Shown here: positions 3,753-31,438 of the stretch, piece by piece
Position numbering within the stretch: position 1 is the stretch's first letter
Layout: each line of letters opens with the position of its first letter
Origin: Myxococcales bacterium
Lineage (GTDB): Bacteria; Myxococcota_A; UBA9042
Assembly (NCBI GenBank): GCA_037441385.1
Contig: JBBISH010000080.1
Location: forward strand, 1-31,536
Length of the DNA: 31,536 bases
Reading direction: 5' to 3'
Program-made: the position numbers and the translations under genes
Notes under the pieces: model-generated
Seen by the model: only the letters and a program-made list of their open reading frames with translations
What the model was told of the DNA's origin: nothing
The model's database searches: none

Positions 3753-3819
3753 TGCTCTTGGGGCAGAGGTCAGGCCACCCTGGTCGACCCGCACGGCAAC
3801 CCTGGAGGATGGCAACACC

Positions 3820-5151: not shown

Positions 5152-5194
5152 TTCCCGCAGCTCGTCGGTGACCCGCGTTGCCGCAAGGAAGACC

Positions 5195-6688: not shown

Positions 6689-6695
6689 GACGGGG

Positions 6696-10321: not shown

Positions 10322-10409
10322 GGCGGGCTCGGGGCGCGGCGGCGCCGGGGCGTACCATCCCCCGATTCGGTGGCTAGTGCAAGCTTGTGGTGGCGACGGC
10401 CCCGGTGGC

Positions 10410-11096
10410 CTATTTGCGCTCGGGCGGGTCGTAGAGGAGCATGCCGGCCAAGAGGCACGCGGTCTGGTCTGCGGTGGCCGGCGCTAGGCCCTTGCTCAGC
10501 CAGAAGCGCCCCGGGTGTTGGGTTTCTACGGCCCCGATCGGCCCGGCGCCGCGCAGCTCCCAGCCCAGGCCCATGGAGTACAGGCTGCCGTGTTCGTCGT
10601 GATCGACGGGGTTCGCCAGCAGGTTGCCGTCGCCGACGACGGCCGCGCCGCCCATGGGCGCGCCGTTTTCGCCCTTGAGCACAAAGCGGGTGCCGCTCGT
10701 GTCGGCGCCGCACGCGCAGGCCAGCGACGTCTGCTGGTTCGACAGGTGGCCGCCAAAGACCGCCACGTCCTTCTTTTCGGCCTCGACGCCGCAGTGGCCG
10801 GGCAGTTCGCCGGTGGGCGTGACGAGTACGAAGGCGTAGCCGGTCTTGATGGCGGTGGTGCTGTAGGCGCCGACGCCCCAGCCCGAGCTGCTGGTCCAGT
10901 CGCGGTCGACCTTGGTGACTTTGTAGGGGCCGAAGTTGAAGCTTTCGTCGACGAGCGCGCCCTTCCAGCTGGAGCGATTTTGGACTTCGTAGACGTTGGC
11001 GCCGCTGGCCAGGTCGGATGGCACGGCCATGCGGATGGGAGCGCAGGCGCAGGCGGCGGTGCCGAGCGCGAGGACTGCAAAGCGAGACAGGGACAT
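10410..11096 (-). CDS. Hypothetical lipoprotein
   Basis: GAGG RBS, lipobox-like ACAC, 228-aa ORF with normal codon bias. Confidence 0.7.
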   Translation of the reverse strand: MSLSRFAVLALGTAACACAPIRMAVPSDLASGANVYEVQNRSSWKGALVDESFNFGPYKVTKVDRDWTSSSGWGVGAYSTTAIKTGYAFVLVTPTGELPGHCGVEAEKKDVAVFGGHLSNQQTSLACACGADTSGTRFVLKGENGAPMGGAAVVGDGNLLANPVDHDEHGSLYSMGLGWELRGAGPIGAVETQHPGRFWLSKGLAPATADQTACLLAGMLLYDPPERK

Positions 11097-11182
11097 GGGG
11101 ACCTCGCGGCCGCCGCGTGGTTTGGAGCCGGCTTGGCGGGGAGCCTACGCTGTGCATCGGAAGGGCGTCAACTCGACAAGAA

Positions 11183-11366
11183 GGGGGGCAATTTCTACTA
11201 CCTACAATTGTTGAGGATTGGGCGCCTCGCCGCTGCCGCGGCGACCCGGCCACGACTTTGGGCGAAGGGAGTTTTCGCCATGCCCCGCGGCTGCCTCCGC
11301 CCAAAGCGGCGTTGCACGCCGCCCTTCGGGTGCGTGTCCGTGGCGCAGCGCCGCCGCGGCCGGCGG
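11183..11366. repeat. ~200-bp structured intergenic repeat, copy 1 (most diverged)
   Basis: GGGGGGCAATTTCTACT...TGGGCGCCTCGCCGCTGCCGCGGCGACCCGGCCACGACTTTGGGCGAAG...CGCCCAAAGCGGCG..., shared with the copies at 13711, 15152 and 18988. Confidence 0.9.
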
Positions 11367-11512
11367 CTGCATCGGCGCCCTGGGTTGGCCCTCGCCGCCC
11401 TTTCCGGCCTGCCCGCGCCCGCGTAGAGCGGGATGGCGTTCGCGCTGCCGCTCCGGCCATCTAGCGGCGGCTCGCCCCGCAAGCCTGCGACCCCAACCCT
11501 ACATGGAGGAAC

Positions 11513-12016
11513 ATGGCGACCGCCTACCTTGTCGAAGGCCCCGTGGGGGCTGGCAAAACTACCTTCGCCGCCCAACTTTGCCTGCGGCACCATGCGCCGC
11601 GGCTAGTGCTGGACGACTGGATGGCGCGGCTGTTCCGCCCGGATCGCCCCGCCACGGACGTCGTGCCGTGGTATCTGGAGCGCAAGCGCCGCTGCCTCGA
11701 CCAGATCTTTCAGGTAGCGAGCGACTTGCTCGAAGCCGGCAGTAGCGTGGTCCTAGAGCTGGGGCTGATTGGCGCGGGCGAACGCCTGGACTTCTATGGC
11801 CTGGCCGATGCGGCCGGCTGGGAGCTGCGCGTCTACGTGCTCGATGCCCCGTTGGAAGTGCGGCGCCGGCGGGTGCAAGCGCGCAACCGCGAGCAGGGCC
11901 CCACGTTTTCGATGGTGGTGCCGGACGAGGCCTTCGAACTGGCCAGTCGCCTGTGGCAGCCGCCCAGCGACGCCGAAGTGACCGAGCGGCGCATCGAAAT
12001 GGTGACCACGGGCTGA
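11513..12016 (+). CDS. Small P-loop kinase/ATPase (AAA_33-like)
   Basis: GGAGG RBS, Walker A GPVGAGKT, lid-like RRRRVQARN segment. Confidence 0.8.
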   Translation: MATAYLVEGPVGAGKTTFAAQLCLRHHAPRLVLDDWMARLFRPDRPATDVVPWYLERKRRCLDQIFQVASDLLEAGSSVVLELGLIGAGERLDFYGLADAAGWELRVYVLDAPLEVRRRRVQARNREQGPTFSMVVPDEAFELASRLWQPPSDAEVTERRIEMVTTG

Positions 12017-12030
12017 TCCTCGCGATGCAT

Positions 12031-12075
12031 GTTTGGGGGGGGCAATTTCTACTCTTTGAAATTGTTCGCATTTGC
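12031..12075. repeat. Partial (head-only) copy of the ~200-bp repeat
   Basis: GGGGGGCAATTTCTACTCTTTGAAATTGTTCGCATTTG, about 15 bp after the kinase stop. Confidence 0.7.
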
Positions 12076-12205
12076 TAGCGCTGCCGACCGTCCCGGGCCT
12101 GCCGCCAGCGCGAACTTGCTGTGCGTGCCGCTCTCAACACCACCTCGACCTGCTGCTGGCCGAGCCGCCATCGTCCGCATGGCAAGTTGCCTGGCAGGTT
12201 TGGCA

Positions 12206-12250
12206 CGTTGGGGGGGCGATTTCTACTATGCAAGATCGCTAAGGTTTGCC
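12206..12250. repeat. Second partial (head-only) copy of the ~200-bp repeat
   Basis: CGTTGGGGGGGCGATTTCTACTATGCAAGATCGCTAAGGTTTG. Confidence 0.6.
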
Positions 12251-12334
12251 ACGGCGGGCCTGGGAATTCCGCGACCTTCACAGGACCGCTTCGAGCGGGC
12301 CTCCCCTGCCAGGTTCACCCAAGTCCGCCCGCGC

Positions 12335-13570
12335 TTATCCGTTCGCGGCGGCGGCCAGTGCCTGATCGACAGCAGCCCTCTGGCGCCGCCACGCCACGAT
12401 GCGCTCCGGTGTGACGCGGGCTTGGAGCTGGCGATCCCGCAGCGGATGCCCCGCCACCGCACGGGCATAGCTCCCGAGCGCGACCTCCACGGAGCCCGCT
12501 GAATGCATCACGGAAACCAGCTCGCCCGATTGCCGATCGAGATCGAGAATTTCGCAAGGAATGGCCACAGCGACGCTCTGCCCCTTTGACCGAGAAAGCG
12601 AAATTCGCCCGTCGGCCTGGTCCTGCCGTGTTTGGAACCAGGGCGGCGGGTAGGGCCAGTCCGCCGGTTTGAAATTGGGCTGACTTCCAACCAGGCGCCA
12701 GCGCCCGTCCGCCACCGCGCTCAGCGACGTCGCCAGCAGAGCGCAGGCTTGTTCTGGAGCCAGGTCCTGTAGGTCCTCGATCCTTGGACATCCTTCGAAT
12801 ATCAACGGAAAGCCGTAGAGCAGGGCATCCCCAAACAGCACCAATCCGGGCTCGCGCGCGACCACCAGGGCGACGCCGATGCCGCCACCCAGCAACGGCA
12901 TGGCCAACCAGTGGCCTGCGCGCACCGACCGATCCGTAGTCCTGCCAGCTGGAATGCTGGGTTGCGCCCTCTGGGCCGCGCGTTGCCGAGCCGCAGCCGC
13001 CCACGCCGTCCAGGTGGCGAGCCGATCCGGGTCGATGGGGGTCACCTGGATGGTCAGGTCCCAAAACCCCGGCCTTCGACCCCGCGCATGGTTCCGCAGG
13101 GCCGACTCCAACCGGCTGGCGCCACTGACGAAGGAGAAGCGGGGAAAGTGGGCCGCAGTCTCGCGATCCGTCGGGTGGTTGTCCGCGACCGTCGCCGTGG
13201 CGGTGTCGTCGGTGGTCTCGATGGAGTACAGGTCGTGCGGCTCAGCCGGCCGATCGAAGTCGCCCGCCCCGGTTGGCAGGACCGGCCAGTCCGCCGGGTC
13301 AAAGTCGGCCACCGCGCCGCGTCGCTGCCACCGCCCGTTCGCAAAGGGCCGTGGCGGCAGCAAGCCAATCCAGGCGTCGGTCCAGCGGGCGAGCGGGGGC
13401 ATCTGGGCCGCAAGCTGCGGATCGACAAGGGGTTGCATGTGCAAGTACGCAAGAACCAGCGGGACTTTGCTGTTGGCGGGCGCCACCCGCGCCACCACCA
13501 GGGCAAAGTGCCCCACGTCCTGGATAGGAATGGTCCAGATGTCACCGGGTTGCACAGTGTTGTTCGCCAT
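12335..13570 (-). CDS. Tandem-duplicated Imm26-like immunity-domain protein
   Basis: Two similar halves begin VQPGDIWTIPI...ALVVAR and VRAGHWLAMPL...ALVVAR. Each later has GRW...G...FxPADWP. Confidence 0.55.
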   Translation of the reverse strand: MANNTVQPGDIWTIPIQDVGHFALVVARVAPANSKVPLVLAYLHMQPLVDPQLAAQMPPLARWTDAWIGLLPPRPFANGRWQRRGAVADFDPADWPVLPTGAGDFDRPAEPHDLYSIETTDDTATATVADNHPTDRETAAHFPRFSFVSGASRLESALRNHARGRRPGFWDLTIQVTPIDPDRLATWTAWAAAARQRAAQRAQPSIPAGRTTDRSVRAGHWLAMPLLGGGIGVALVVAREPGLVLFGDALLYGFPLIFEGCPRIEDLQDLAPEQACALLATSLSAVADGRWRLVGSQPNFKPADWPYPPPWFQTRQDQADGRISLSRSKGQSVAVAIPCEILDLDRQSGELVSVMHSAGSVEVALGSYARAVAGHPLRDRQLQARVTPERIVAWRRQRAAVDQALAAAANG

Positions 13571-13710
13571 CGAGTATCCCCTGCGTGGATCCGCCGCTCA
13601 CCAGTGTGGGCAGGGCCTTGCGGGCACAGCTGACCTGGAGCTTGGCGAAATTCGATCCTGTGGACAAGTCGTCACTCGGTCCAGCGAGCCGCTGCCAGCG
13701 CCCTGTGTAT

Positions 13711-13922
13711 GTTGGGGGGCAATTTCTACTGCGCGAGATCATTCGGATCTGGGCGCCTCGCCGCTGCCGCGGCGACCCGGCCACGACTTTGGGCGAAGAA
13801 GGCTTCCGGCCGGATTCGCGGGCTCCTGCGCCCAAAGCGGCGCGCGGCGCCGCCCTGCGGGTTCGTGTCCGTGGCGCGGCACCGCCGTGGCCGGCGGTGG
13901 GGGCCCAGCGGGAGACGGAGCC
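13711..13922. repeat. ~200-bp structured intergenic repeat, copy 2
   Basis: Near-identical to copies 3 and 4, ending GGGAGACGGAGCC. Confidence 0.95.
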
Positions 13923-13954
13923 GAAACCGGAGTCGGAACCGCAGCCGGAGGGTC

Positions 13955-14008
13955 ACCCGGCGGCTAAAGCCGCAGGCTAACTCTACAAAGCCCGGCCTCC
14001 GCCGGGCC
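13955..14008. repeat. Bipartite REP-like double hairpin
   Basis: CCCGGCGGCTAAAGCCGCAGGCT, spacer, GCCCGGCCTCCGCCGGGC. Same layout as the ends flanking tnpA at 26601 and 27099. Confidence 0.55.
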
Positions 14009-14064
14009 AGACCCCTTGTTGTACGGGGCAGTTGCCGTGTCCAGCACTGGCTGGGCGAGGCGCA

Positions 14065-14104
14065 ATTGGAACTTTTAGTTCCAATACGCGGAAAATAGAT
14101 TTCG
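14065..14104. promoter_or_regulatory. Palindrome plus GAAAATAGATTTCG motif, module 2
   Basis: ATTGGAACT-TTT-AGTTCCAAT followed by ACGCGGAAAATAGATTTCG. Confidence 0.7.
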
Positions 14105-14120
14105 CCCGCCCTGCCAACCG

Positions 14121-14352
14121 CTAATCCATCGCCGCGTTGCGTCCCTGCTGCTCGGCCTGCTCGACCTCCACCGCCGTGCGAAACGCGTCCAGCCATGCCA
14201 CCTGCCCCTCGGCCTCTACCTGCTGCAGCAGCCGCACCACCGCGCGCACGGCCTCGGTGTAGGGCTCGCGCGGCTTGCGCGGCGCCTTGTCGGTCGGCTG
14301 GCCGGCTTGCAACTGCTTGGCTTCGGCGACCACCTTGGTCACTGGGCGATTC
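14121..14352 (-). pseudogene. 5'-truncated copy of the repeated HTH/DUF3102-like gene
   Basis: Only RPVTKVVAEAK...GRNAAMD matches the full copies. Similarity stops near 14352, upstream of the MNT gene. Confidence 0.85.
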
Positions 14353-14464
14353 TGGGCTCGCTCGATCGGCCTCGACGCCGGCACGCGCTTGCCTGGGCCT
14401 GCTGCCGTGCGTATGCTGCACATGGTTCGCTGCGCCGGGTCGGCGGAACACGAGTTGATTCAAG

Positions 14465-14788
14465 ATGTCCGAGCCCTTTGCCCGCCTGCCCCCCGTTGCC
14501 TCGCGTGCCGAGGTGCTGGCGCGTCTGGCTGCCAATCAGCCGGAGTTGGCGGCCTTGGGGGTGCGGTCGCTCGAGTTGTTTGGCTCGTTTGCCCGCGACC
14601 AGGCGGGGCCCGCCAGCGACGTGGATTTCGTGGTCGAGTTCGCCGAGCCGTTGCAGGTCGAGCACTACTTTGCCTTGCGCTTTTTGCTTGAAGACCTGCT
14701 GGGCCGCCGCATCGACCTGGCGCGCAAGCGGGCGCTCAAGCCGACCTACCGCGCGTTTGTCGAGCCGGAGTTGATTCGTGTCGCGTAG
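14465..14788 (+). CDS. MNT minimal nucleotidyltransferase antitoxin (MntA-like)
   Basis: [22 protein letters not shown] is the GSx10DxD motif. Overlaps the HEPN gene. Confidence 0.9.
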
Positions 14789-15125
14789 TTGGCGCACTCG
14801 CTTGGTCGACAACGCCGAAGCATGTGAGCAAACGGCGGCGTTTGTGGCTGGCATGGACTTGGCGGGCTTCCTGGCCGACGCGCGGACCCGGGCGGCGGTC
14901 GAGCGGATGCTCGGGGTGATCGGCGAGGCGGCCAAGCACGTTCCAGCCGAGGTGCGCGAGCGGTACCCGGGCGTGCCTTGGCGCGAGGCGGCTGGAATGC
15001 GCGATGTTTTGGCGCACGACTACTTCGACGTCGACCCCGAGATGGTGTGGCTGGTCGCGACCCAGCGCGTGCCGGCGTTGCTGGCTGCCGTGCAGGCGGC
15101 GTTGGCAGCCGAAGGTGGCGAGTAG
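14778..15125 (+). CDS. HepT-like HEPN (DUF86) RNase toxin
   Basis: AVER...IGEAAK...PW...MRDVLAHDY contains the Rx4HxY motif. Confidence 0.9.
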
Positions 15126-15151
15126 CCATTGGGCAGTCGTTGCGCAGGTAC

Positions 15152-15362
15152 GTTGGGGGGCATTTTCTACTGCCCAAGATTATTCGCATTTGGGCGCCTC
15201 GCCGCTGCCGCGGCGACCCGGCCACGACTTTGGGCGAAGTAGGATTCCGGCCGGAATCGCGGGCTCCTGCGCCCAAAGCGGCGCGCGGCGCCGCCCTGCG
15301 GGTTCGTGTCCGTGGCGCGGCACCGCCGTGGCCGGCGGTGGGGCAGAACGGGAGACGGAGCC
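15152..15362. repeat. ~200-bp structured intergenic repeat, copy 3
   Basis: Begins ~27 bp after the HEPN stop. Near-identical to copies 2 and 4. Confidence 0.95.
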
Positions 15363-15428
15363 CCGGTCTCCCCGCCTGAGCAAGCTCGTCCTGCGCCCGA
15401 ATCGCCAGTCTTTAGGGGCGGTGGGTCA

Positions 15429-15573
15429 GCGGCCGGCGCGGAGGCACGGCCGCTACACCCTGGCGCACGTCCTTTGGGAGCAGCCTGTTCGTGGCGAAGG
15501 TCGAGCCGGGTTGCCAAGCGGTACCTTCCCCCTTTGGGCAGCAGGGGTAGCGGCTGGCCTCTGTGCCGGCCGC
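15429..15573. repeat. Pair of GTAG-type REP-like hairpins
   Basis: Minus strand GTAGCGGCCGTGCCTCCGCGCCGGCCG (15429-15456) and plus strand GTAGCGGCTGGCCTCTGTGCCGGCCG (15547-15573). Confidence 0.55.
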
Positions 15574-15645
15574 TCAACCGCCGGTTGTAGGTTGCTCCGT
15601 AGGTTGCTCTGCTACTGCCCGTGCTCGCCCTCTTGCGCCCGGCCA

Positions 15646-15686
15646 TATTGGACATTTTATGTCCAATACGCGGAAAATAGATTTCG
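15646..15686. promoter_or_regulatory. Palindrome plus GAAAATAGATTTCG motif, module 3
   Basis: TATTGGACAT-TTT-ATGTCCAATA is a perfect inverted repeat, followed by CGCGGAAAATAGATTTCG. Confidence 0.7.
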
Positions 15687-15703
15687 CCGGGCCACCTCAG
15701 TCA

Positions 15704-16258
15704 CTAATCCATCGCCGAGCTTCGCCCCTGCTGCTCCGCCTGCTCGACCTCCACCGCCGTACGAAACGCGTCCAGCCACGCCACCTGCCCCTTGGCCTCC
15801 ACCTGCTGCAGCAGCCGCACCACCGCCCGCACCGCCTCGGTGTAAGGTTCGCGTTGCTTGCGCGGCGGTTTGTCGGTCGGTTGGCCCGCTTGGAGGTACT
15901 TGGCCTCGGCGACCACCTTGGTCATGGGGCGGTCCAGCGCGGCCACCGGCATCTGCTGCGCCATGGCGGTGACCACTTGGGCCGTGGTGCAGTAGCGGCG
16001 CACCTGGCGGACGTCGATGCCCAGGCGCTCGGCGTGCGCGGCCTCCCAGGCGGTGACGCCGCTGCGGGCCTTGGGTTTGCTGGCCAGGAGCGTTTGGCCG
16101 AGTTTGATGCGGTAGGCGTTGGCGTGGATCTGCGCGGTTTGGGTGGTGGTCGAGAGGGAGGAGAGGTAGGATTCGGGGGTTTGGTCCGGGGCTGGGTCGG
16201 GGAGCTGGTTGAGGAGGTCGGCTATGGTTTGGGGTTCGGCGGGGCTGGGTTGCGACAT
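15704..16258 (-). CDS. Repeated HTH-containing protein (DUF3102-like)
   Basis: Likely start MSQPSP at 16258. IKLGQTLLASK...W...AERLGIDVRQVRRY resembles an HTH/DUF3102 pattern. Conserved paralog at 19280. Confidence 0.7.
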   Translation of the reverse strand: MSQPSPAEPQTIADLLNQLPDPAPDQTPESYLSSLSTTTQTAQIHANAYRIKLGQTLLASKPKARSGVTAWEAAHAERLGIDVRQVRRYCTTAQVVTAMAQQMPVAALDRPMTKVVAEAKYLQAGQPTDKPPRKQREPYTEAVRAVVRLLQQVEAKGQVAWLDAFRTAVEVEQAEQQGRSSAMD

Positions 16259-16743
16259 GGTGGGGCTTCCCGGCGTCCGATTTTGCCGGACGCGAAATAG
16301 ATTTCGACGAATTGCAGTGAGCATGTCAAGGCGTCCCGGCCCGGCGATGGAGGGTGCCGGGGATCTTCTGAACGGCTACCGCCGGGCCGTCGCGCTGCGG
16401 CCGCCGGTCGAGCGTAGGTCATGCGCGGTGACTGAGTTCTTGCTCCCGGCGGTGGCGACGCTCGGTCGCGCCGCCACCCTTGCGGGCTGGCATCGCTGAC
16501 GCGGGGTTGGGGTTTGCCGTGGTTGCGCGGGGCAGAAGGTGGGGGTATTGAGCGGCGGGAATTCATTTCCTGGAATGTGCCAGCCGAGCACAGCGTGCGT
16601 CCCTGTGAACTCCCATCCCCATGAATACTGAAGGTGAAGTTGCTGTGGCGTCGTCGCCCAGCCGTTGACTGAACTGCCCTGCAAGCGTAGCCTCGCAGGC
16701 GTCCGCTGCGGGCCGAATTGGCGACCGTGCGAACCGGAGCGCC

Positions 16744-18471
16744 ATGGTGACCGCCGTCATGCAGTTCAACACCGCGAACCAGACGCTGCGGCAGCTACTC
16801 GGCAACGGGCTCACCTACCGAGTACCGCCGTTCCAGCGCGACTATTCGTGGGACCAAGAGCAGTGGGAAGAACTGTGGCAGGATATCCTGCAAATCTCTG
16901 CTCCTACCGCCGCGGGTTCGGCGCCAAGTGCGCATTACTTGGGCTACGTGGTTCTGCAGAGTGTCGATAGCAAACAGTTCGACGTGATCGACGGGCAGCA
17001 GCGCCTGGCGACCCTCACCTTGGTGTTTCTGGCTGGCATCGAGCTGCTCGAACAGATGGTCCGGCAAGGGGTTGAGGCCGACGCCAACCGGCAGCGTGCT
17101 GTAGCCCTGCGCGCTACGTACGTCGGTTTCCTTGACCCTGTCACGCTTCTCAGCCGCAACAAGCTGACCCTCAACCGCAACGACAAGTATTTCTTCGAGA
17201 CCTATCTCGCGCCGCTGCAAGCTCCTCCGCGCGGCCGCAGCTTGGCCCCGTCGAACCGGCTGCTGCTGCAAGCCTACACTTGGCTCAGCAAGCAGCTGCA
17301 AAGCCACTTGGCCGGCGCAACCGGTGCTGCTGTGGCGCAGTTGCTGGCCGACATGGCCGACCGCCTGTTCTTCACGGTGATTTCGGTTGCCGACGAGCTC
17401 AACGCGTTTACGGTCTTTGAGACCCTGAACTCGCGCGGCGTCCGACTGTCGTCGACCGACCTGCTCAAGAACTACCTGTTCTCTCTGGTCTCGCGCCACG
17501 GCGCCGACGACCGCGAGCTCAACCAGCTCGAAATCCAGTGGCAGGCCATTCTCGACAAGCTCGGCGACGAGGACTTTCCCAACTATCTGCGCGTCTGGTG
17601 GAACGGCAGGCACCCCCTGGCGCGTCAGAGTGAGTTATTCAAAGAAGTTCGGAAACATACCACGGAGCGGGGCGAGGTCTTTGAGCTCCTGCGCGCTCTG
17701 GACCGCATGGCCGGCGTGTACGTCGCTCTGGGCAAGCCCGAATCCGAACTGTGGACCCACAGCCAGCGCGAGGCCCTTGAGCAGTTGAAAATGTTCGGGG
17801 TCAAGCAGCCCTTCGTGTTGCTGCTTGCTGCCTACGAGCAGCTTGGGCACGATGATTTTGCCCGATTGGCCGAGGCCTGCGCGGTGTTGAGCTTTCGCTA
17901 CAACGTAATCGGCGGCCTGCATACCGGCGAGCAAGAGAAGGTCTACCACGACCTAGCTGTGCGCATCAGTACCGCATCCGATTGGCGCCTGCACGACATC
18001 TTGGTCGACTTGGCCGCGCTCGCGCCTAAGGACGATCAATTTCGCTCCAACTTCGCACAAGTTCAGCTCCGCACGACCAGCCCACGCAACAAGCGAATTG
18101 CACGGTATATTTGCGCGCGCTTGCAGCATCACTTGGGTGGTGCACTGGTCGACCCCGACGACGGCACGTACACCCTCGAACATATTTTGCCTGAGAACCC
18201 GGATCCCGACGCCTGGCCCGACATCGACCCCGACGAAGCGCGTCAATGGTGCTACCGGCTTGGCAATTACACGCTGCTCGAGTCCTCCAAGAACCAATCG
18301 GCCGCCAATCGCAGCTGGGCCGAGAAGCGACCGATCTTTGGGCAAAGTGCCGTCGGTTTGACCCAGGGCGTGGCCGAGCGGTATGTCGAAGCATGGGGAC
18401 CGGTGCAGATCGACAAGCGCCAGAAGTACTTGGCGCAGCAGGCCGTTGCGGCTTGGCGACTTGTGGTTTAG
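16744..18471 (+). CDS. DUF262-DUF1524 protein (GmrSD/SspE-like NTPase-HNH nuclease)
   Basis: PPFQRDYSW, IDGQQRL and FETLNSRG are DUF262 motifs. LEHILPE...LGNYTLL...N is the HNH/DUF1524 motif. Confidence 0.9.
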   Translation: MVTAVMQFNTANQTLRQLLGNGLTYRVPPFQRDYSWDQEQWEELWQDILQISAPTAAGSAPSAHYLGYVVLQSVDSKQFDVIDGQQRLATLTLVFLAGIELLEQMVRQGVEADANRQRAVALRATYVGFLDPVTLLSRNKLTLNRNDKYFFETYLAPLQAPPRGRSLAPSNRLLLQAYTWLSKQLQSHLAGATGAAVAQLLADMADRLFFTVISVADELNAFTVFETLNSRGVRLSSTDLLKNYLFSLVSRHGADDRELNQLEIQWQAILDKLGDEDFPNYLRVWWNGRHPLARQSELFKEVRKHTTERGEVFELLRALDRMAGVYVALGKPESELWTHSQREALEQLKMFGVKQPFVLLLAAYEQLGHDDFARLAEACAVLSFRYNVIGGLHTGEQEKVYHDLAVRISTASDWRLHDILVDLAALAPKDDQFRSNFAQVQLRTTSPRNKRIARYICARLQHHLGGALVDPDDGTYTLEHILPENPDPDAWPDIDPDEARQWCYRLGNYTLLESSKNQSAANRSWAEKRPIFGQSAVGLTQGVAERYVEAWGPVQIDKRQKYLAQQAVAAWRLVV

Positions 18472-18964
18472 TGGTGGCCGTCCCGGTACGCCGCCTTTGC
18501 GGACCGCGGCTGGTCGGTGGCCGTTGGCGGCAGCTCGTTCCGCTTGGCTTGCTGCAGGGATCGGCGCTGACCTGGGCATCGCCCTGTGTGGCCAAGCCAG
18601 GCATGGCCGACATGATGGACACCGCGTTCCAGACAGCCGGTCGGGCCATGGGGCTCGCGTCCTTGGCGCCGCTCTTGTTGTGATATTTGTTGCCGTATCC
18701 ATCGAAGCTGGCCGTTTGTCGGCGGCGCGTTGGCTCAGTCGCGCATTGGCGGCGGCGGCGCTGGCGGTGGTCGCTGGCCTGGTCTGCTTGGCGGTTGCGC
18801 CAGGCTTGCTGTTGGCGGTGGCACCAATCTACCTGGTTGGCATGCCGGGCATGCCCACGCTGGCGATCGGCACGGTCAAGTGGCCCCGGGTCCGTCTCGC
18901 GCTTTGGGCGGCGTTGGTTGCCCTGTGGTCGCTCCTTGCGTTCTGGCTGCTGCGCATCGGGTAG
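18471..18964 (+). pseudogene. Small membrane protein, apparently frameshifted near 18660
   Basis: A GTG overlapping the DUF262 stop opens a signal-like frame that ends at 18683. The multi-TM part (LGAALVVIFVAV...LLAFWLLRIG) is in another frame ending at 18964. Confidence 0.35.
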
Positions 18965-18987
18965 CGGTTGTTCCGGGGGGCATCCGA

Positions 18988-19198
18988 TTGGGGGGCAATT
19001 TCTACTGCGCGAGATTATTCGGATCTGGGCGCCTCGCCGCTGCCGCGGCGACCCGGCCACGACTTTGGGCGAAGAAGGATTCCGGTTGGAATCGCGGGCT
19101 CCTGCGCCCAAAGCGGCGCGCGGCGCCGCCCTTCGGGTTCGTGTCCGTGGCGCGGCACCGCCGTGGCCGGCGGTGGGGCCAGAACGGGAGACGGAGCC
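18988..19198. repeat. ~200-bp structured intergenic repeat, copy 4
   Basis: Begins ~24 bp after the membrane-protein stop. Near-identical to copies 2 and 3. Confidence 0.95.
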
Positions 19199-19222
19199 AC
19201 GTCCGGGGCCCGCGACGGGCGC

Positions 19223-19263
19223 TATTGGAACTTTTGGTTCCAATACGCGGGAAATAGATTTCG
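19223..19263. promoter_or_regulatory. Palindrome plus GAAATAGATTTCG motif, module 4
   Basis: TATTGGAACT-TTT-GGTTCCAATA followed by CGCGGGAAATAGATTTCG. Confidence 0.7.
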
Positions 19264-19279
19264 CCCGGCCTACCAACCG

Positions 19280-19831
19280 CTAATCCATCGCCGCGTTTCG
19301 TCCCTGCTGCTCCGCCTGCTCGACCTCGACCGCCGTGCGAAACGCATCCAGCCACGCCACCTGCCCCTCGGGCTCGACCTGTTGGAGTAACCTGACCACC
19401 GCTCGCACCGCCTCGGTGTACGGCTCGCGTTGCTTGCGCGGCGGTTTGTCGGTCGGTTGGCCCGCCTGGAGGTGCTTGGCCTCGGCGACCACCTTGGTCA
19501 TGGGGCGGTCCAGCGCGGCCACCGGCATCTGTTGGGCCATGGCGGTGACCACTTGGGCCGTGGTGCAGTAGCGGCGCACCTGGCGGACGTCGATGCCCAG
19601 GCGCTCGGCGTGCGCGGCCTCCCAGGCGGTAACGCCGCTGCGGGCCTTGGGTTTGCTGGCCAGGAGCGTTTGGCCCAGCTTGATGCGGTAGGCGTTGGCG
19701 TGGATCTGCGCGGTTTGGGCGGTGGTCGAGAGGGAGGAGAGGTAGGATTCGGGGGGTTGGTCTGGGGCTGGGTCGGGGAGCTGGTTGAGGAGGTCGTGGA
19801 TGGTTTGGGCGGGGGTGGGTTCGGTGGACAT
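19280..19831 (-). CDS. Repeated HTH-containing protein (DUF3102-like), second full copy
   Basis: AAGGA RBS, start MSTEPT at 19831. Differs from the 15704 copy at 8 residues after the QTI motif. Confidence 0.75.
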   Translation of the reverse strand: MSTEPTPAQTIHDLLNQLPDPAPDQPPESYLSSLSTTAQTAQIHANAYRIKLGQTLLASKPKARSGVTAWEAAHAERLGIDVRQVRRYCTTAQVVTAMAQQMPVAALDRPMTKVVAEAKHLQAGQPTDKPPRKQREPYTEAVRAVVRLLQQVEPEGQVAWLDAFRTAVEVEQAEQQGRNAAMD

Positions 19832-19995
19832 GCTCGTGGTCCTTGGCGCCGCGGGGCGGCACACGTTGGAGCTATGTTCCCAACTTGGCTGTGGTTGTCA
19901 ATGACATATTACCTGAAATATGAAAGTAACTACTCCTTGCCGATGCCCTTCGGACGGGCTAACCTGCAACACCTCCGGAACATGGGGCCCCAGCG

Positions 19996-22900
19996 ATGCA
20001 GCCAATGAATCGTCGTGAATTCGAAGTCGCACTTTCCTTTCCAGGGGAAGAGCGCAGATTTGTGTCGAAACTTGCCAAGCATCTGGCTGACCAACTCGGA
20101 GAGCAGCGCGTGCTTTACGACAAGTTCCACATGGGCCGATTCGCTGCCCTGGACCTTGACGCCACCTTGCCCAACCTATACCGAACCGAATCGGAACTCG
20201 TAGTAATACTGCTCTGCCCCGACTACACGAAGAAACGCTGGTGCGGCCTTGAGTGGCGCGCCATCAAGCAGATCATTGCAACTCCTGAGCAAAAGCGGAT
20301 CTTGCTCTTGAAACGTGGCGATCCAGGCGATCTGAGTGCTCTCGGGATCTACCAAGGGGATGGTTGGCTGGAAACCAAGGGCAAGACAACGGGCGCGCTG
20401 GCAAAGATAATTCTTGATGAACTCGCGCGCCGCACCGGCTGGTCGCGTCCGCGCGTCGATGCCACGGTGTCCGTTCGGCGGCCGCCAGTGCTGGTTTTGC
20501 CGGAGCCTGAGGAATCCGACGTAAAAGATAGGGGTTGGCAGCTTGAGCCGGGCGTCCGCCGCAGTGTCGTAGGCCTGTCGGGCTTGGTTTCCTTTTCTGA
20601 CCTAGAAAGTGTGAGTTGCGTCGTTGCCATTGGCGAGCCAGGTATCGGAAAAAGCAAGGGCATGCAGCAAGAATTTCAGGCTGCACGCAGCCGACACGCG
20701 GGCGAACCATCCCACTTCGTCTTTGGTCGTGACCTGCGGGTGTATCGTGACGAGGGCAGGTTTGTGGCGGAGATCTTTGAGTCGGAGGGGTGGAGGAAAT
20801 GGTCGGCCGGCGAAGCGTGGCTCTCACTCTACCTCGACAGCCTGGACGAATGCCGTTTGGGCACGCCATTTGTCACAGACCTCCTCACGCACCAACTGGA
20901 ACTGAATCGGAGACACCTTGGAAAGCTCCGGCTCCGTGTCGCTTGTCGGACCGCCGACCTCCCGCGACAAATTGCAGATACCTGGTGCAGCGACCTGTTC
21001 AAGAGCGCCGGATTTCAAGTCGTTCGCGTTCCACCCCTGAGTGATAGCGAGGTAAGAACTATCTTGGTAGGGACTGGTGTCGACGCCGATGACCTGACCA
21101 GGCGCGTAACAGCCTTGGGGGCGGCAGACCTGCTGCGGCGGCCCATCACGTTGAACATGTTGGCGAAGGCCTTTCAGCAGGAGCATCCGCCGACGACGCT
21201 GACGGCGATCTACGAGCAAGGTTGCCTTGCACTCGCCGACGAGTGGAGCCAGGCGCGGAAGGATGAAGCCCGACTTATGTCTGGGTATCTTTCGGCTCAA
21301 GCGAAGTTGGCTATCGACACTCACGCCGCAGCTCTATTGATCCTTTCGAATCGTCGGTTTATGGGTGACCGCGAGTTCGAGCACGCGGAGGACAGCATTC
21401 CTGTAGCAGATGTAGCCACTGGCGCTCCGGTGCCCGCGGGTGCCACCGCTGACCGGCTGGGCGCAGTTCGCGACTGCCTCAAGATGGCCTTGTTTTCCAT
21501 GCCAGATCCAACGCAGGACCTGACGGAGTTCGCGCACCGTACCTACTGCGAGTTCCTGGCAAGCCGGCACCCGAATCGCGAGGCATTGATCTCCTTGCTC
21601 AAAACCGACGGCGAGTCCGGAGCGCGCATCGTGCCGCAACTTGCGGAAGTTGCGGCTTGGCTTGCTTGCAACGACGAGGAGTTTCGCCGCTTCGTGCTGT
21701 CGACGCAGCCTCAACTGTTGCTCAGCAGTGATGTCGTACGGTCCGATGAGCTAGGCAAGGCCGACGTTGCAGAAGCGCTAATAGGGGCCGTCGACGACAA
21801 GAAAGTCGCGCTGAACGAGGTACTGTACCTCGACGGATTTCCCGATTTGAAGTCCGACCGCGTTGCCGGGCTCGTTGGCTGCTGGATTCAAGACAACAAT
21901 CGCACACTTGAGGCCAGACTGCTCGCTTGCACTATTGCCCATGAGGCCAAGCTACTGGCCACGGCAGATGGTCTATATGCTGTCCTTGCCGACAAAGACC
22001 AGGATCTCCGGCTTCGAGTTGCCGCCGCGCGTACCATCGCCGGCTTGGGCGATGTGAGGGTCAACAGGCTGCGGCCGTTTGCCGAAGGACTTCCAGAAGA
22101 CGCCAACGACGAAATCAAGGGGTATGCGCTCAGCGCGCTCTTCCCTGCGGACATCCCTCCAACGGAACTGTTTGGATACATTTCCCCCCCAAAAAACGAC
22201 AGCTTTTACGGGGCGTACATGGCGTTCCTACATGGCCGCATGCAAAGCATCGACGTTGCGCTTGTGGTGCCGGGGCTGCGGTGGTGCCTTGGGGTGAACC
22301 GGAGCGCCCACGATTTCGGTGCAGTCATCGACCTTGCGGACGCGATAGTACGCAAAGCCTGGACGTCATTGGCAGATCCGGAAGTCGTTTCGTTGCTTGC
22401 CCAGCTTGCCGTAACCTGGGCCGGTAACTACGAATCCATACTCCCTGTGCCAGCAAAGTCTTGGGTTCACATCACGGATCAAGACGCGGTTGGCGGCGAG
22501 CTATCCGACCAGGCTCGTCGAGCGGTGATCTTCGACATGCTGGCCCACGGTCGAGCAACACGAGAACTATGGGACAATATTGTGTTTTCGCAGCATCCCC
22601 TGGCGTTGGGTAAAGACGCGGCGTGGCTGCTCGGACTCAAGAAGCAACTCCCAAGCGAGCAGCACCCAATCTGGGCCACGCTTACCGAGACTCTATTTCG
22701 CGTCCCCGGGCAGAACTACTTCGACCTAGTTGCAGAGCACCTTGCCGAAATTCTTGACGACCTTGATCTTAAGTGTGCGTTTTCAAAAGTTTTGGAGCCT
22801 GTCGCCCTCGCCGGTCCCGAAGCCGCATCGGCGCGGGCCATGTTGCAGAGTGATGCGGAGTGGCGCAGGCAGAGCGAAATACGAAAGCAAGAGGAAGATG

Positions 22901-24096
22901 AGCGGAAACTGAAAGAGGACCCTCGAACACGGGTGCTTCGCTTTCTGGAAGAGGCCGAAGGCGATCAGGTAAACGGCTGGTGGAAGGTCTGGCTGCAACT
23001 AACCCTGACCCCTGACAGCACGCGGTACGGTAACCCGCTCCACACGATCGTGACGGCGATGCCTGGGTGGCGCGACGCTGGCCCGGATACCAGAGAGCGA
23101 CTGGTCGCACTTGCGGCCAGGTACTTAGAGACAGGAAGTCCTAGCTTTTCGGAGTGGTTTGGAAAGTCAACGATCCACTACCCGGCTTCAGCCGGTTACG
23201 CCGCGTTTGGTCTGTTGTTCGAGGCTGCGTCACCGCAGTATCAGGCAATTCCTTCGGGGATCTGGCAGAAGTGGGCAAAAACGATCGTCGCGGTGCCGGT
23301 AGACGGCGAAGCTGAGAGGTCGCTCCATGCAATGCTTGTCGCCGACGCTTACGCTGAAGCGCCAGAGGAGGTCCTAGACACTCTACTTGAGCTCATACTC
23401 GAGGAAAACAGAACCCATGGCCACATCTTCAGCCACACCCTAGTCGCTGCTTGCTGGGATGAGCGAATTCGTCTGTTCTTCCAGAACCTTCTCACTACTC
23501 CCGAAATGAAGCCTACGCCCGTAGGCATAGTAGCTGAGGTTCTCCTTGGGCGTGACGACAATGCAAGCCTCGGCTGGGCGTGCGATACCGTATCCGATGA
23601 AAACGCGCCTAGTGACCTTCGAATTGCCGTTGCCCGTGCCCTCATGACCAAAGCCCACGGCGCGAGTTGGGGGCGCCTCGCGCCGATCCTATGGGCGGAC
23701 CATGACCTTGCGCGCTCAGTGTTTTCGGCAGTTGCCAACTCCGCAGGATTCCTCCGGGCCTGGCCAGAGCAAGTGGACGTGGCGCGCGACGGTGCAGTTT
23801 TGACGCTGATGATCCAGGTCTTTCCGTACGCGAACGATGTTCGCCCACTGGGAGCACATACCGTTGGCCTACAAGAGCAGGCCCAGGAGATTCGCGACTC
23901 CCTCTTGCGTCGAATCGCCGGTCTGGGCACACACGCGGCTGCAGATTTCATGTCGCAGCTTGCTGTCGAACATCCCGACCTCCACTGGCTCCGAGACAGG
24001 GCACTCGAAGCCAGAACACTGGCGGAACGGAAGTCGTGGAGTCCCAAATCGCCTAAGGAGGTAGCAGCAATTCTGGCAAACAGGAACCGTCAATGA
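19996..24096 (+). CDS. TIR - STAND (NACHT-like) NTPase - helical repeat protein, putative defence sensor/effector
   Basis: N-terminal TIR (FEVALSFPGE, WCGLEW with catalytic-type Glu), Walker A GEPGIGKS (20632-20655), Walker B LYLDSLDE, FAHRTYCEFLAS winged-helix motif and a long alpha-helical C-terminus. Visibly lower GC than the flanks. Confidence 0.85.
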   Translation: MQPMNRREFEVALSFPGEERRFVSKLAKHLADQLGEQRVLYDKFHMGRFAALDLDATLPNLYRTESELVVILLCPDYTKKRWCGLEWRAIKQIIATPEQKRILLLKRGDPGDLSALGIYQGDGWLETKGKTTGALAKIILDELARRTGWSRPRVDATVSVRRPPVLVLPEPEESDVKDRGWQLEPGVRRSVVGLSGLVSFSDLESVSCVVAIGEPGIGKSKGMQQEFQAARSRHAGEPSHFVFGRDLRVYRDEGRFVAEIFESEGWRKWSAGEAWLSLYLDSLDECRLGTPFVTDLLTHQLELNRRHLGKLRLRVACRTADLPRQIADTWCSDLFKSAGFQVVRVPPLSDSEVRTILVGTGVDADDLTRRVTALGAADLLRRPITLNMLAKAFQQEHPPTTLTAIYEQGCLALADEWSQARKDEARLMSGYLSAQAKLAIDTHAAALLILSNRRFMGDREFEHAEDSIPVADVATGAPVPAGATADRLGAVRDCLKMALFSMPDPTQDLTEFAHRTYCEFLASRHPNREALISLLKTDGESGARIVPQLAEVAAWLACNDEEFRRFVLSTQPQLLLSSDVVRSDELGKADVAEALIGAVDDKKVALNEVLYLDGFPDLKSDRVAGLVGCWIQDNNRTLEARLLACTIAHEAKLLATADGLYAVLADKDQDLRLRVAAARTIAGLGDVRVNRLRPFAEGLPEDANDEIKGYALSALFPADIPPTELFGYISPPKNDSFYGAYMAFLHGRMQSIDVALVVPGLRWCLGVNRSAHDFGAVIDLADAIVRKAWTSLADPEVVSLLAQLAVTWAGNYESILPVPAKSWVHITDQDAVGGELSDQARRAVIFDMLAHGRATRELWDNIVFSQHPLALGKDAAWLLGLKKQLPSEQHPIWATLTETLFRVPGQNYFDLVAEHLAEILDDLDLKCAFSKVLEPVALAGPEAASARAMLQSDAEWRRQSEIRKQEEDERKLKEDPRTRVLRFLEEAEGDQVNGWWKVWLQLTLTPDSTRYGNPLHTIVTAMPGWRDAGPDTRERLVALAARYLETGSPSFSEWFGKSTIHYPASAGYAAFGLLFEAASPQYQAIPSGIWQKWAKTIVAVPVDGEAERSLHAMLVADAYAEAPEEVLDTLLELILEENRTHGHIFSHTLVAACWDERIRLFFQNLLTTPEMKPTPVGIVAEVLLGRDDNASLGWACDTVSDENAPSDLRIAVARALMTKAHGASWGRLAPILWADHDLARSVFSAVANSAGFLRAWPEQVDVARDGAVLTLMIQVFPYANDVRPLGAHTVGLQEQAQEIRDSLLRRIAGLGTHAAADFMSQLAVEHPDLHWLRDRALEARTLAERKSWSPKSPKEVAAILANRNRQ

Positions 24097-25349
24097 GTGA
24101 CTTCCCGGCTTTGCCCGACATCAATAGCGATCAGGTCTCGGTCTCTGTACCAAATCCAAAACCATTGGACATCCTCGTGTTCGCCACGGAGTGGGCGCCG
24201 AGGCACGGCGGGCTGTCGACGCTAAATCAGAAGCTCTGCGTTGCACTAGCCGCCACTGGCCGCTGCCGGGTAGTCTGCTACATTCCCCCGGAGAGTGGGG
24301 AAACCCCGCGCGAAGATCGCGGTGTCCTACTGCTTCCCGCAAGGGCGGTGCCTGGCTTCCCGGCCAGCGACACGGCCCTTCTGCTGCGTCGTCCCGGGTT
24401 CGCTACCTTGCCGCGCTTCCAGGACTTTGCGCCAGATTTCGTTGTCGGTCACGATGACAAGACTGGGCCACATGCTTTGGCGGCGTGTCAGGACCACTTC
24501 CCAAGCGCCAAGCGGGTCCAGTTTGTGCATACGGAGGTCTATCCACTCCAAGGCGCAAAGACTCACTCGTCAGGCCAATTGACAAGTGCCAAGGCGTGTT
24601 TGGCCTCGGACCTCGTGAGAGAGGCTGACCTCGCCGTTGGCGTAGGTCCGCTGCTGGCCGAGGTGGCCTTTGGATACGGCGCCAAGCGCGAGCTTGCGTA
24701 TCAGCTGGATCCGGGGTTTGAGCTGTCGACTTGCGAGGTGCCACTTGCAGCGAACACCCAGCGGCGACTGAATGTTCTGGTCATTGGCCGGACGAAGGAC
24801 CCAGAGGTCAAGGGCCTTGAGCGCGCCTGCGTTGTACTTGCCGACGTGGCTGCCTACGTGCAGCACGAGGTCAATCTAATAATTCGTGGGTCAGATGATC
24901 AAAGTCAAAAGCACCTCAGCAAGCTCGCAAGAACATGGAATCGGAAGTGCCCGAACTTGAAGATTCAACCGCGTGAATTCACAGTTGAAAAGCGCGAGTT
25001 GGCGCAAGACTGGCGGGCTGCTCACCTTCTTATCGCGCCTTCTACCGTGGAAGGATTTGGGCTGGTTGCGCTTGAGGCTGCTGAGCGCGGAGTGCCCTTT
25101 CTAATTTCGAACCCATCCGGCTTCGCAAAGTGGCTCAACAGCTTGGATTCCTCTGCGTTCGACCGCCACGTGATCAATCCGCCGGGCGACGAGGAGGCTC
25201 TTCACGACGCATGGGTTGATCGAATCACCAGAATCTATCGCGACCCGGAAGGGGCCCGCCGCGAGTGCAGGAAAACCCAGGGCCTACTAGCGCCATACAC
25301 CTGGGAGCGGGCCGCGAACCAGTTGCTGGACAGGCTCGCCAGACTGTGA
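24093..25349 (+). CDS. GT4-type (GT-B) glycosyltransferase resembling the conflict-associated clade
   Basis: ATGA overlap with the TIR-STAND gene. ATEWAPRHGGLSTLN N-terminal motif, GR...KG, and Ex7E motif EGFGLVALE. Confidence 0.8.
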   Translation: MSDFPALPDINSDQVSVSVPNPKPLDILVFATEWAPRHGGLSTLNQKLCVALAATGRCRVVCYIPPESGETPREDRGVLLLPARAVPGFPASDTALLLRRPGFATLPRFQDFAPDFVVGHDDKTGPHALAACQDHFPSAKRVQFVHTEVYPLQGAKTHSSGQLTSAKACLASDLVREADLAVGVGPLLAEVAFGYGAKRELAYQLDPGFELSTCEVPLAANTQRRLNVLVIGRTKDPEVKGLERACVVLADVAAYVQHEVNLIIRGSDDQSQKHLSKLARTWNRKCPNLKIQPREFTVEKRELAQDWRAAHLLIAPSTVEGFGLVALEAAERGVPFLISNPSGFAKWLNSLDSSAFDRHVINPPGDEEALHDAWVDRITRIYRDPEGARRECRKTQGLLAPYTWERAANQLLDRLARL

Positions 25350-26600: not shown

Positions 26601-27156
26601 GGCGACCCAGGAATGAATTCCCGGGCTCGCAGTGACCAACGCCCTCCTCCGAGGGCTGCTCAGGCGCTTCGGTCGGTGCTGGGCAGCACGTCGCGGCTCC
26701 GCTCCCAGTCGGCGTGGACTGTGCCGGTGCTGTGATGCTGCTCCTGGCCCTGCACATAAGCCGCTACATCCTCAAAGTCCGCCGCCGCAAACGTGAACGC
26801 GCCATACCCTCCCTGCCAGCGCAGGGCAACTTGACGGCGGCCCGCTTCGCGGCTCGTGGCGCCCTTCAGGTCCTTGACCACGTCGGCCACGGCCACAGTC
26901 GCCGGCAGATCCATGGCGATATGCACATGGTCTTCAACGCCCCCGACCACTACGATGCCGGCGCCGAGGCTTCGGGCCCGCTGCGCAAGCGCCGGATGCA
27001 GCCACTGGCGCACCTCAAGAGTCAGAATGGGCGCCCGGTCCCACGTGGACCAAACCAAGTGCACGTACAGCTGCTTGAGCGAACGAACCATTCCTTCCTC
27101 AGCCCGCGGAGGCGGGCGTCTTTAACGCGAGCCCGGGAATTCATTCCCGGGTCGCC
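26601..27156 (-). mobile_element. REP-flanked Y1 transposase unit (IS200/IS605 TnpA or TnpA-REP type)
   Basis: 30-bp inverted ends GGCGACCCAGGAATGAATTCCCGGGCTCGC and GCGAGCCCGGGAATTCATTCCCGGGTCGCC (1 mismatch). Each is itself a hairpin, with a second inner hairpin. Confidence 0.75.
26660..27091 (-). CDS. tnpA: IS200/IS605-family Y1 HUH transposase
   Basis: HLVWST, GGVEDHVH (HUH), LKGATS, WQGGYGAF and catalytic Tyr in AAYVQGQEQHH. Confidence 0.9.
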   Translation of the reverse strand: MVRSLKQLYVHLVWSTWDRAPILTLEVRQWLHPALAQRARSLGAGIVVVGGVEDHVHIAMDLPATVAVADVVKDLKGATSREAGRRQVALRWQGGYGAFTFAAADFEDVAAYVQGQEQHHSTGTVHADWERSRDVLPSTDRSA

Positions 27157-31076: not shown

Positions 31077-31438
31077 AGTATCCGTCAACCCGCCAACCCG
31101 CCAACCTGACGGATACAGCCCCACGAGCACGCCGGCCGGTACTGCGGCCCTGGCACCGCGGGGGCGACCCAGGAATGAATTCCCGGGCTCGCAGTGACCA
31201 ACGCCCTCCTCCGAGGGCTGCTCAAGCGCTTCGGTTGGTGCTGGGCACCAGGTCCCGGCTCCGCTCCCAGTCGGCGTAGACTGTGCCGGTGCCGTGATGC
31301 TGCTCCTGGCCCTGCACATAGGCCGCTACATCCTCCAAGTCCGCGGCCGCAAACGTGAACGCGCCATACCCTCCCTGCCAGCGCAGGGCAACCTGACGGC
31401 GGCCTGCTTCGCGGCTCGTGGCGCCCTTCAGGTCCTTG
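31077..31438 (-). pseudogene. Truncated duplicate of the tnpA 3' half plus its REP end and flank
   Basis: Diverged direct repeat of 26523-26876. Coding remnant 31222-31438 lacks the HUH motif. REP end at 31163-31220. Confidence 0.85.

Follow-up and report, generated by a model that had tools for sequence, protein, structure and literature searches.

The question raised by this locus is what kind of genetic element recurs four times along one bacterial contig, and whether its copies are kept by selection on a fold. The window, by which we mean the whole stretch of 31,536 nt analysed here, is contig C80 of a 6.6-Mb, 68% GC genome in 221 contigs. It carries four copies of a 211-nt repeat, all on the + strand, which start at 11181, 13712, 15153 and 18988 and share 73-95% identity; Tandem Repeats Finder reported nothing at the repeat locus. 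A preliminary description had proposed that this repeat folds into a multi-stem structure supported by compensatory changes, and that selection acts on an RNA or single-stranded DNA (ssDNA) fold, such as an undescribed non-coding RNA (ncRNA), a recombination substrate analogous to attC, or a single-strand origin. The repeat is itself part of a larger duplicated module, which also holds a 60-nt palindrome segment and a gene on the - strand, named gene X here.

We found that the 211-nt repeat is composite and consists of a 37-nt box, a core of ~130 nt, and a hairpin present in some copies only. The conserved family covers only ~19025-19157 of copy 4, and most relatives have neither the initial 37 nt nor the final hairpin. 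All four cores lie on the + strand and match a covariance model of the family: copy 4 (19025..19157) with 126.2 bits, copy 3 (15190..15322, with its box at 15153-15189) with 122.4 bits, copy 2 (13749..13881, box 13712-13748) with 117.8 bits, and copy 1, the most diverged (11218..11350, box 11181-11217), with 113.4 bits; copies 2 and 3 belong to repeat family D1. The 5' box of copy 4 (18988..19024, + strand), TTGGGGGGCAATTTCTAC with a weak hairpin, is a separate abundant motif outside the conserved family. On the 3' side, the hairpin P5, CACCGCCG-TGGC-CGGCGGTG, occupies 19156..19175 on the + strand, with arms at 19156-63 / 19168-75. A GC-rich hairpin stands 3' of many long-form cores and not of short forms, and no T run follows it. 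P5 was rejected as a general part of the element, as identical cores have different 3' flanks and the short forms lack it.

The core of copy 4, read on the + strand, begins with P0, an outer, terminal helix of 5 bp that pairs the two ends of the element (GCGCC/GGCGC, 19029-33 / 19149-53). P0 is followed by the hairpin P1 (TCGCCG/CGGCGA, 19034-39 / 19046-51) and by P2 (CGG-C-CACGA / TCGTG-T-CCG, 19054-56+19058-62 / 19139-43+19145-47), which contains a conserved C.U mismatch and closes a linker-free four-way junction with P3, P4, and P4b. P3 (CTTTGGGC/GCCCAAAG, 19063-70 / 19106-13) is long, and encloses a tip hairpin (GATTCC/GGAATC, 19078-83 / 19088-93); its tip is variable between subfamilies. 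P4 is formed by CGGCGC/GCGCCG (19114-19 / 19123-28) and P4b by CCC-TTC-GGG (19129-37), with arms at 19129-31 / 19135-37. The whole is a branched core of six helices with one three-way and one four-way junction, in which the junction nucleotides, like the C.U mismatch, are conserved among the copies. RNAalifold, run on 34 MAFFT-aligned copies from five genomes, gave the same architecture independently, with P0 as GCGCN/N'GCGC. Across 81 aligned copies the core ends read GG-GCGCN...N'GCGC-R, and the P4b loops are mostly of the UNCG type (UUCG in 23, UGCG in 17, UACG in 3, and UCCG in 3). Short forms of the core, 90-104 nt in length, lack the P3 tip, and a few copies carry insertions of ~45 nt.

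Five of the six stems that the preliminary description had drawn for copy 4 are present in the sequence of the + strand. TCGCCGC/GCGGCGA and GCGGCGC/GCGCCGC appear as P1 and P4, the C(TTCG)G loop lies within P4b, and CTTTGGGC/GCCCAAAG enclosing GATTCC/GGAATC, together with CACCGCCG/CGGCGGTG, stand as drawn. The sixth, GCCACG/CGTGGC, which had been thought to close a junction, is unsupported and in the wrong register; covariation instead backs P2 (19054-62 / 19139-47) together with P0. The double changes noted for copy 1, GCGGCGT/ACGCCGC and GCCGCCG/CGGCGGC, are both present in the alignment, where compensatory changes of this copy fall in P4 and P5.

For the pair count, the same 34 copies from five genomes were trimmed to the core and aligned a second time with MAFFT (alignment A3), and our own bracket string was applied to them. 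Here 97.2% of 1219 cells are paired, compared with 90.5% in shuffles and 28-43% with slid partners; both sides have changed in 17 of the 36 pairs, and none of 500 shuffles matches the observed values on any measure. With 81 copies, in an alignment made with the covariance model and hence biased toward it, 97.1% of the cells are paired versus 79.8% in shuffles, and 32 of the 36 pairs are compensatory. Compensatory changes were found in every helix when the alignment was thus enlarged (34 and 81 copies), and the multi-stem fold originally proposed is borne out. Its predicted energy gives a divided answer, since copy 4 folded as a single sequence reaches z = -0.85 on the + strand, where 32 of 200 shuffles fold equally well, and z = -2.99 on the - strand, where it folds better than shuffles. 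The energy check against shuffles therefore fails on one strand and passes on the other, and as the + strand is no better than its shuffles, the support for the fold is covariation and not free energy.

No Rfam 15 family reaches its gathering threshold, either on the whole window or on 12 related loci from metagenomes and viruses. When values of E up to 10 are admitted, four weak matches (E 4-9) appear over 11000-20000; they are inconsistent between copies, and the two that overlap a copy belong each to a different family and strand. ARAGORN found no tRNA or tmRNA cloverleaf gene in the window, and a full-text literature search, limited to the portions of text that it returned, gave no description of the core element. 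The compensatory changes in every helix of the larger alignment, together with the lack of an Rfam match, support the earlier suggestion of selection on how a single-stranded nucleic acid folds. Pairing of 97% is kept across copies of only 73-85% identity, which suggests that the constraint falls on every copy and not on master copies alone. The core is a real, strongly supported, uncatalogued structured element.

The core was searched for by BLAST, nhmmer, and the covariance model in its own genome and in relatives, and the matches share the core only. Fifteen matches were found in the own genome and 70, 54, 21, 8, 6, 5, 5, 3, 2, and 1 in the other 10 genomes of the genus. At E ≤ 0.001, the covariance model finds the core in 14 of 37 genomes of the taxonomic family, namely all 10 other genus genomes and three other genera, one of which is represented by a single match with E = 4e-5. 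A stricter search across the class gave matches in 12 of 107 genomes, all in one Myxococcota family and in three genera, and none outside that family. Copies are always intergenic, and they are not found at orthologous places. Orthologues were sought for genes beside core-bearing loci (two in the own genome, one in G001, and one in G009), and no core match was found in either set of nine and seven comparison loci (15 from other species and, among the nine, one paralogous locus of the own genome). The exception to this lack of synteny is one pair of a core and a gene common to the own genome and its closest congener.

The ends of the core are sharp. Homology between otherwise unrelated loci begins exactly at the first core base (L080/L088 and L089/L090), and two identical cores within one locus have unrelated 3' flanks; the core is thus a discrete unit. 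When empty sites were looked for, other species proved to have kept the flanking genes, but their intergenic DNA could not be aligned, and no pair of empty and filled sites was found. The flanks of 81 copies gave no target-site duplication, and no conserved target motif was found. The bases before GGGCGC are variable in 68 non-redundant flanks, with no conserved target of 4-5 nt upstream. The cores have no TCA flanks, which sets them apart from a 132-bp TCA-flanked repeat family of the same genome. Contigs of three DNA sequencing runs over 10000-21000 consist of unitigs broken at the repeats, with the short-sided joints typical of repeats, and gave no usable sign of excision or of an empty site. 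Two cores of another genome (L086, G005:C5, at 325-453 and 1497-1626) have near-identical flanks on both sides and different P3 tips and P4b helices, and the own-genome copy C106c resembles a recombinant of two neighbouring copies, which together suggest that copies exchange or convert sequence. In G009, the ~230 nt that follow a short-form core (L089:4734-4967) belong to another repeat family, of which G001 has more than a dozen copies at 80-86% identity on many contigs.

The window copies lie in the intergenic DNA of a defence-type island. Between them are genes for an AAA_33/zeta-like kinase, an Imm26-like protein, an MNT/HepT pair, and a GmrSD endonuclease, and downstream of copy 4 follow a 1366-aa TIR protein and then a 'GT4-conflict' ('conflict-system') glycosyltransferase. 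The 1366-aa protein has an N-terminal TIR domain and a weak likeness to the NACHT antiphage models EruA and HyoA (108 and 97 bits, far below the cut-offs). The segment that holds both genes, 19996-25349, is lower in GC (58-60% versus 65-70% around it), and the two are probably a horizontally acquired defence pair. Elsewhere in the window, 3601-7802 contains overlapping long open reading frames with NHL/teneurin-type repeats and internal DNA repeats of 34-85 nt (D4, D6, D8, and D9), and probably encodes one large repeat protein, or a frameshifted one.

Many cores stand in arrays. In the own genome 12 of the 15 matches fall into four clusters, each on one strand, and 24 of 31 adjacent pairs within 10 kb are on the same strand, a count taken from loci picked for holding several matches and from pairs that are not independent within one array. 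The spacing in arrays is 0.7-4 kb, and the cassettes between the cores of other genomes include BrnT, HigB, Gp49/HI1420, MazEF, MNT/HepT, Zeta, PIN, DUF2442/DUF4160, AbiEii, and Schlafen-AlbA2. One toxin-antitoxin cassette is 92% identical between two species and is preceded in them by cores of different subtype, and a HigBA cassette sits between cores in both orientations. Many other cores are singletons beside ordinary genes, for example after fumarase, transporter, or housekeeping genes, and in another genus neighbouring cores lie on mixed strands (G013:C17 and C104).

Several further repeats accompany the cores. Six copies of the 37-nt box lie in the window against none expected by chance, every one on the + strand, and the box precedes the core only in this window's copies; two boxes without a core lie at 12037..12074 and 12211-12248 (+ strand, family D5). 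Elsewhere in the genome the box forms MITE-like inverted pairs 253-275 bp apart and tandem variants spaced by 21 nt that end in TCTGAA. It is also found ~150 nt upstream of a multi-copy gene of ~360 aa that is weakly similar to Y1 (HUH) transposases and breaks the assembly. Read as an 18-nt box, TTGGGGGGCAWTTTCTAC, it has 31 exact copies in the own genome and 72 with one mismatch, and its six window sites span 11183-19006 and delimit cassettes. A second abundant box of ~30 nt, GGTGTCAGGTATTGCCACTTGCCACATAGG, precedes three or four cores and stands alone, at 100% identity, at many sites (G000 C39:31908-31945, C184, and at least 15 others); TTGACA variants of it occur in G007 downstream of the fumarase gene.

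Gene X is encoded on the - strand at 19280..19864 (194 aa), with other copies at 15704-16324 (206 aa) and 14121-14423 (truncated); all belong to family D2. It has no match in Pfam, PHROGs, or NCBIfam. In the ESM Atlas it falls, with a score of 0.95, near clusters that partly carry DUF3102 and of which many are viral, so a DUF3102-like nature is a lead only. At its 3' end lies the palindrome TATTGGAAC-N5-GTTCCAATA with CGCGGRAAATAGATTTCGCC (19211..19270, 14052-14111, and 15634-15693, + strand, family D7). The palindrome, also read as TATTGGNAC-N5-GTNCCAATA beside CGCGGAAAATAGATTTCGCC, is always 3' of gene X, its arms change in a compensatory way between copies, and it also follows gene X homologues in G000 (C37:4903, C37:5876, C139:5785, and C139:6593). 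A related palindrome comes after cores or toxin-antitoxin cassettes in other genomes (L080, L088, and L021). Gene X was rejected as an obligatory partner, because C37 and C139 carry it in the absence of cores and the majority of cores have no gene X.

Relatives of the core extend beyond the sequenced genomes. A metagenome scan gave three further loci with strong model matches (60-132 bits), two of these matches standing in a single locus beside a DDE transposase gene, and four weaker matches of a phage type. Two scans of viral collections gave core relatives of ~87-93 nt with 38-53 bits in seven IMG/VR contigs (L131, L133, L136, L137, L139, L141, and L299), which are phage-like and have 58-63% GC. 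These phage-type relatives had first been picked out by a pattern that spans P0 and P1. Even so, their 3' halves supply the partners for P2 and P0, with compensatory changes and again the C.U mismatch, and several adopt the P2/P0 architecture when folded singly. They lie within early or recombination gene blocks, mostly on the gene strand, near genes for ERF, YqaJ, DUF968/HNH, Cro/CI-type HTH, and integrase-like proteins.

Whether the fold is made by RNA or by DNA was approached from several sides. Among the non-canonical cells, G.T/T.G number 27 against 10 of A.C/C.A when one helix-end pair is left out and 27 against 41 when it is included, and 21 of the 27 G.T/T.G cells come from a single pair. 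One P2 pair is GC in 50 and GU in 21 of the 81 model-aligned copies. The mostly UNCG-type P4b loops, in four variants, hint at RNA. No peak of a -10-like TANNNT was found in 68 non-redundant upstream flanks or on the other side, and a tool scan of the four window copies gave nothing resembling a promoter or a terminator. In our reading of the sequence, a TTGGGG...GATTAT arrangement ends 8 nt before the core in the window copies. Neighbouring genes are oriented at random with respect to the core (by crude gene calls, 34 genes 5' of it point the same way and 35 the opposite way, and 3' of it the numbers are 31 and 38), and the GC skew around the own-genome copies, used as a test of replication-strand bias, is too weak for a call.

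The range of copy numbers, the lack of synteny, the sharp ends, the lack of a promoter signal, and the indifference to orientation fit a mobile element better than a conventional RNA gene. We tentatively favour the reading that the core is a lineage-restricted, non-autonomous mobile element whose branched single-strand fold is preserved by selection, with a logic like that of REPINs. Such a core would be copied or moved in a single-stranded state, for which the favoured candidate is DNA, either at a replication fork or as an intermediate of transposition, as for REP/REPIN, IS200/IS605 ends, and attC. P0 would bring the two junctions between element and flank side by side, and a putative enzyme acting in trans may recognise the conserved junction nucleotides. 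The candidates are HUH/Y1 transposases. Y1_Tnp has six matches in the genome, one of them in the window, and these lie away from the 15 core matches. The one in the window is an IS200-like gene at 26660-27091 (- strand, 69.5 bits), flanked by inverted copies of a different, 30-nt palindrome, GGCGACCCAGGAATGAATTCCCGGGCTCGC (26601-27156; I2/I3), in a RAYT/REP-like arrangement, and no Y1 gene flanked by cores was found. A third copy of this palindrome (31163-31192) and a 300-nt repeat (26511/31073) are nearby, and in another species (L086) the palindrome also follows two cores at a distance of ~45 nt. The copies may accumulate in dispensable cassette islands. Several points stand against a mobile element: the branched fold, the conserved junction nucleotides, and the mostly UNCG-type loops look more like a functional RNA than a known transposon end; the pairing kept in diverged copies suggests constraint on every copy; local duplication could account for the same-strand bias of the arrays; and the core has no linked enzyme, just as no empty and filled pair, target-site duplication, or target motif was found.

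The first of these points leads to the main competitor, in which the core is a genuine structured ncRNA family, transcribed by read-through or from promoters that vary between loci and folded as RNA. Such an RNA would act in or near toxin-antitoxin and defence islands and phage early regions, possibly as a protein decoy or partner, a processing or insulating element, or an antitermination element, and its copy number would reflect island turnover. The branched fold with its four-way junction free of linkers, the conservation of unpaired nucleotides, and the four variants of UNCG-type loop argue for it, as do the 97% pairing kept in diverged copies, the G.U tolerated at one P2 pair, the distant relatives of ~90 nt placed mostly on the gene strand in early blocks of phage-like contigs, and the TTGGGG...GATTAT arrangement in our reading. 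However, no conserved promoter signal stands at a fixed distance in the 68 flanks or came from the tool scan, the orientation to neighbouring genes is random, copies range from 1 to ~70 among congeners and are absent at orthologous loci, and singletons stand beside housekeeping genes. We regard this account as possible and, on balance, rather unlikely. The arrays in turn recall an integron, and the core could be the attachment site of a cassette system in which a site-specific recombinase other than IntI would take the folded strand as substrate and build the same-orientation toxin-antitoxin and defence arrays. Its copies are spaced 0.7-4 kb apart amid a gene content typical of chromosomal integron arrays, its own-genome clusters each keep to one strand and its adjacent pairs mostly do, as counted above, and homologous cassettes stand beside cores of different subtype in two species. 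Yet the integron integrase model TIGR02249 has no match above its cut-off in 11 genus genomes that are 61-94% complete (the best reaches 93 bits against 265, and the matches are Xer-like only), the RYYYAAC and GTTRRRY boxes are missing, and the structure is branched and not a single bulged hairpin. The same HigBA cassette in both orientations to its flanking cores, the many singletons, and the mixed strands in the other genus also weigh against this account, which we hold to be unlikely.

Further from the evidence is an orphan or satellite RNA of the guide or template type, such as a retron msr-msd, the omega RNA of TnpB/IscB, or the bridge RNA of IS110. Retron ncRNAs have an a1/a2 layout of pairing ends, which P0 and the internal hairpins recall, and the P3 tip varies between subfamilies. 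The TnpB zinc ribbon (PF07282) has no match in the own genome, however, and RRXRR/IscB (PF14239) none in the 11 genomes, a search whose control was likewise without a match in all 14 control genomes. IS110 (PF01548) is absent from G009, with its 70 core copies, and from G013, with 18, and its one match in G000 lies on a contig without a core, so that IS110 genes do not track the element. Reverse transcriptases (RVT_1) give one or two matches per genome in five genomes, none on any of the contigs listed as having a core. Elsewhere in the genome, the variable P3 tips find 13-mer matches at chance level only, on which ground the tips were rejected as guides. This account is largely refuted and very improbable. 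Of the proposals made for the repeat at the outset, a single-strand origin has nothing in its favour and is disfavoured by the dozens of chromosomal core copies.

A wider reading may be drawn from the same observations: the core might represent a novel class of elements that act as a folded single strand of RNA or DNA, common to myxobacterial chromosomes and phage early regions and signalling the junctions of an IntI-free cassette system that assembles or polices toxin-antitoxin and anti-phage arrays. We think it unlikely; if true, a putative protein would have the branched fold as its substrate or partner. The core unites traits that are mostly met apart, namely the copy dynamics of selfish DNA, a branching like that of functional RNAs, a placement recalling integrons, and distant phage-type relatives, and with six helices and compensatory changes in 32 of 36 pairs of the model-aligned copies it is among the better-supported uncatalogued structured elements. 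If mobile, it would add a branched substrate to the elements that, like REPINs and attC, depend on their fold, and would point to a new enzyme; if RNA, it would be a new family tied to defence islands. Either way, its covariance model can mark toxin-antitoxin and defence islands in uncultured Myxococcota.

Compared with known systems, the core shares features with several and coincides with none. The attC sites of chromosomal integrons include species-specific repeats such as the Vibrio cholerae repeats, and they resemble the core as folded single-strand elements of ~60-140 nt that conserve structure; many cores, like attC sites, stand in same-strand arrays and separate toxin-antitoxin-rich cassettes. 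An attC site, however, is a single imperfect, bulged hairpin with extrahelical bases, whereas the core is branched, lacks the R'' (RYYYAAC) and R' (GTTRRRY) boxes, and has no AAC...GTT pair at its ends in 81 copies; there is no IntI for it in the 11 genomes, the orientation of its cassettes is not fixed, and many copies are singletons. In the case of the PATEs of IS200/IS605 and of bacterial MITEs, the likeness lies in small, non-autonomous, structured intergenic repeats in a genome rich in such elements. The core differs from MITEs in lacking terminal inverted repeats of ~10 bp or more, as only the 5-bp P0 pairs its ends, in showing no target duplication in the flanks of 81 copies, and in its covariation in four internal helices, which recognition of double-stranded terminal repeats does not require; it differs from PATEs in having no conserved 4-5-nt target immediately 5' of it in 68 flanks. 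Orphan structured RNA motifs from mobile-element or phage contexts, such as HEARO, STAXI, radC, and RAGATH, are catalogued in Rfam. They too are multi-copy and structured and lie in mobile, defence, or phage regions, with RNA versus ssDNA function debated, but no Rfam 15 family matches the core. The REP/REPIN-RAYT system differs in that a REPIN consists of two inverted REPs forming one long hairpin, whereas the core branches at a three-way and a four-way junction, and in that no core-flanked Y1 gene was found. Both are extragenic, non-coding, multi-copy, and lineage-restricted, vary in copy number between relatives, and live in genomes with Y1 transposase genes. In the available part of one report, REPINs are described as mobile repeats for which hairpins in ssDNA or mRNA are predicted and in which compensatory changes are common (PMC3116915); within the same scope, the core resembles them in its single and clustered copies and in pairing kept by compensatory changes. 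This documented compensatory change is part of what leads us to favour a REPIN-like logic acting on a branched substrate.
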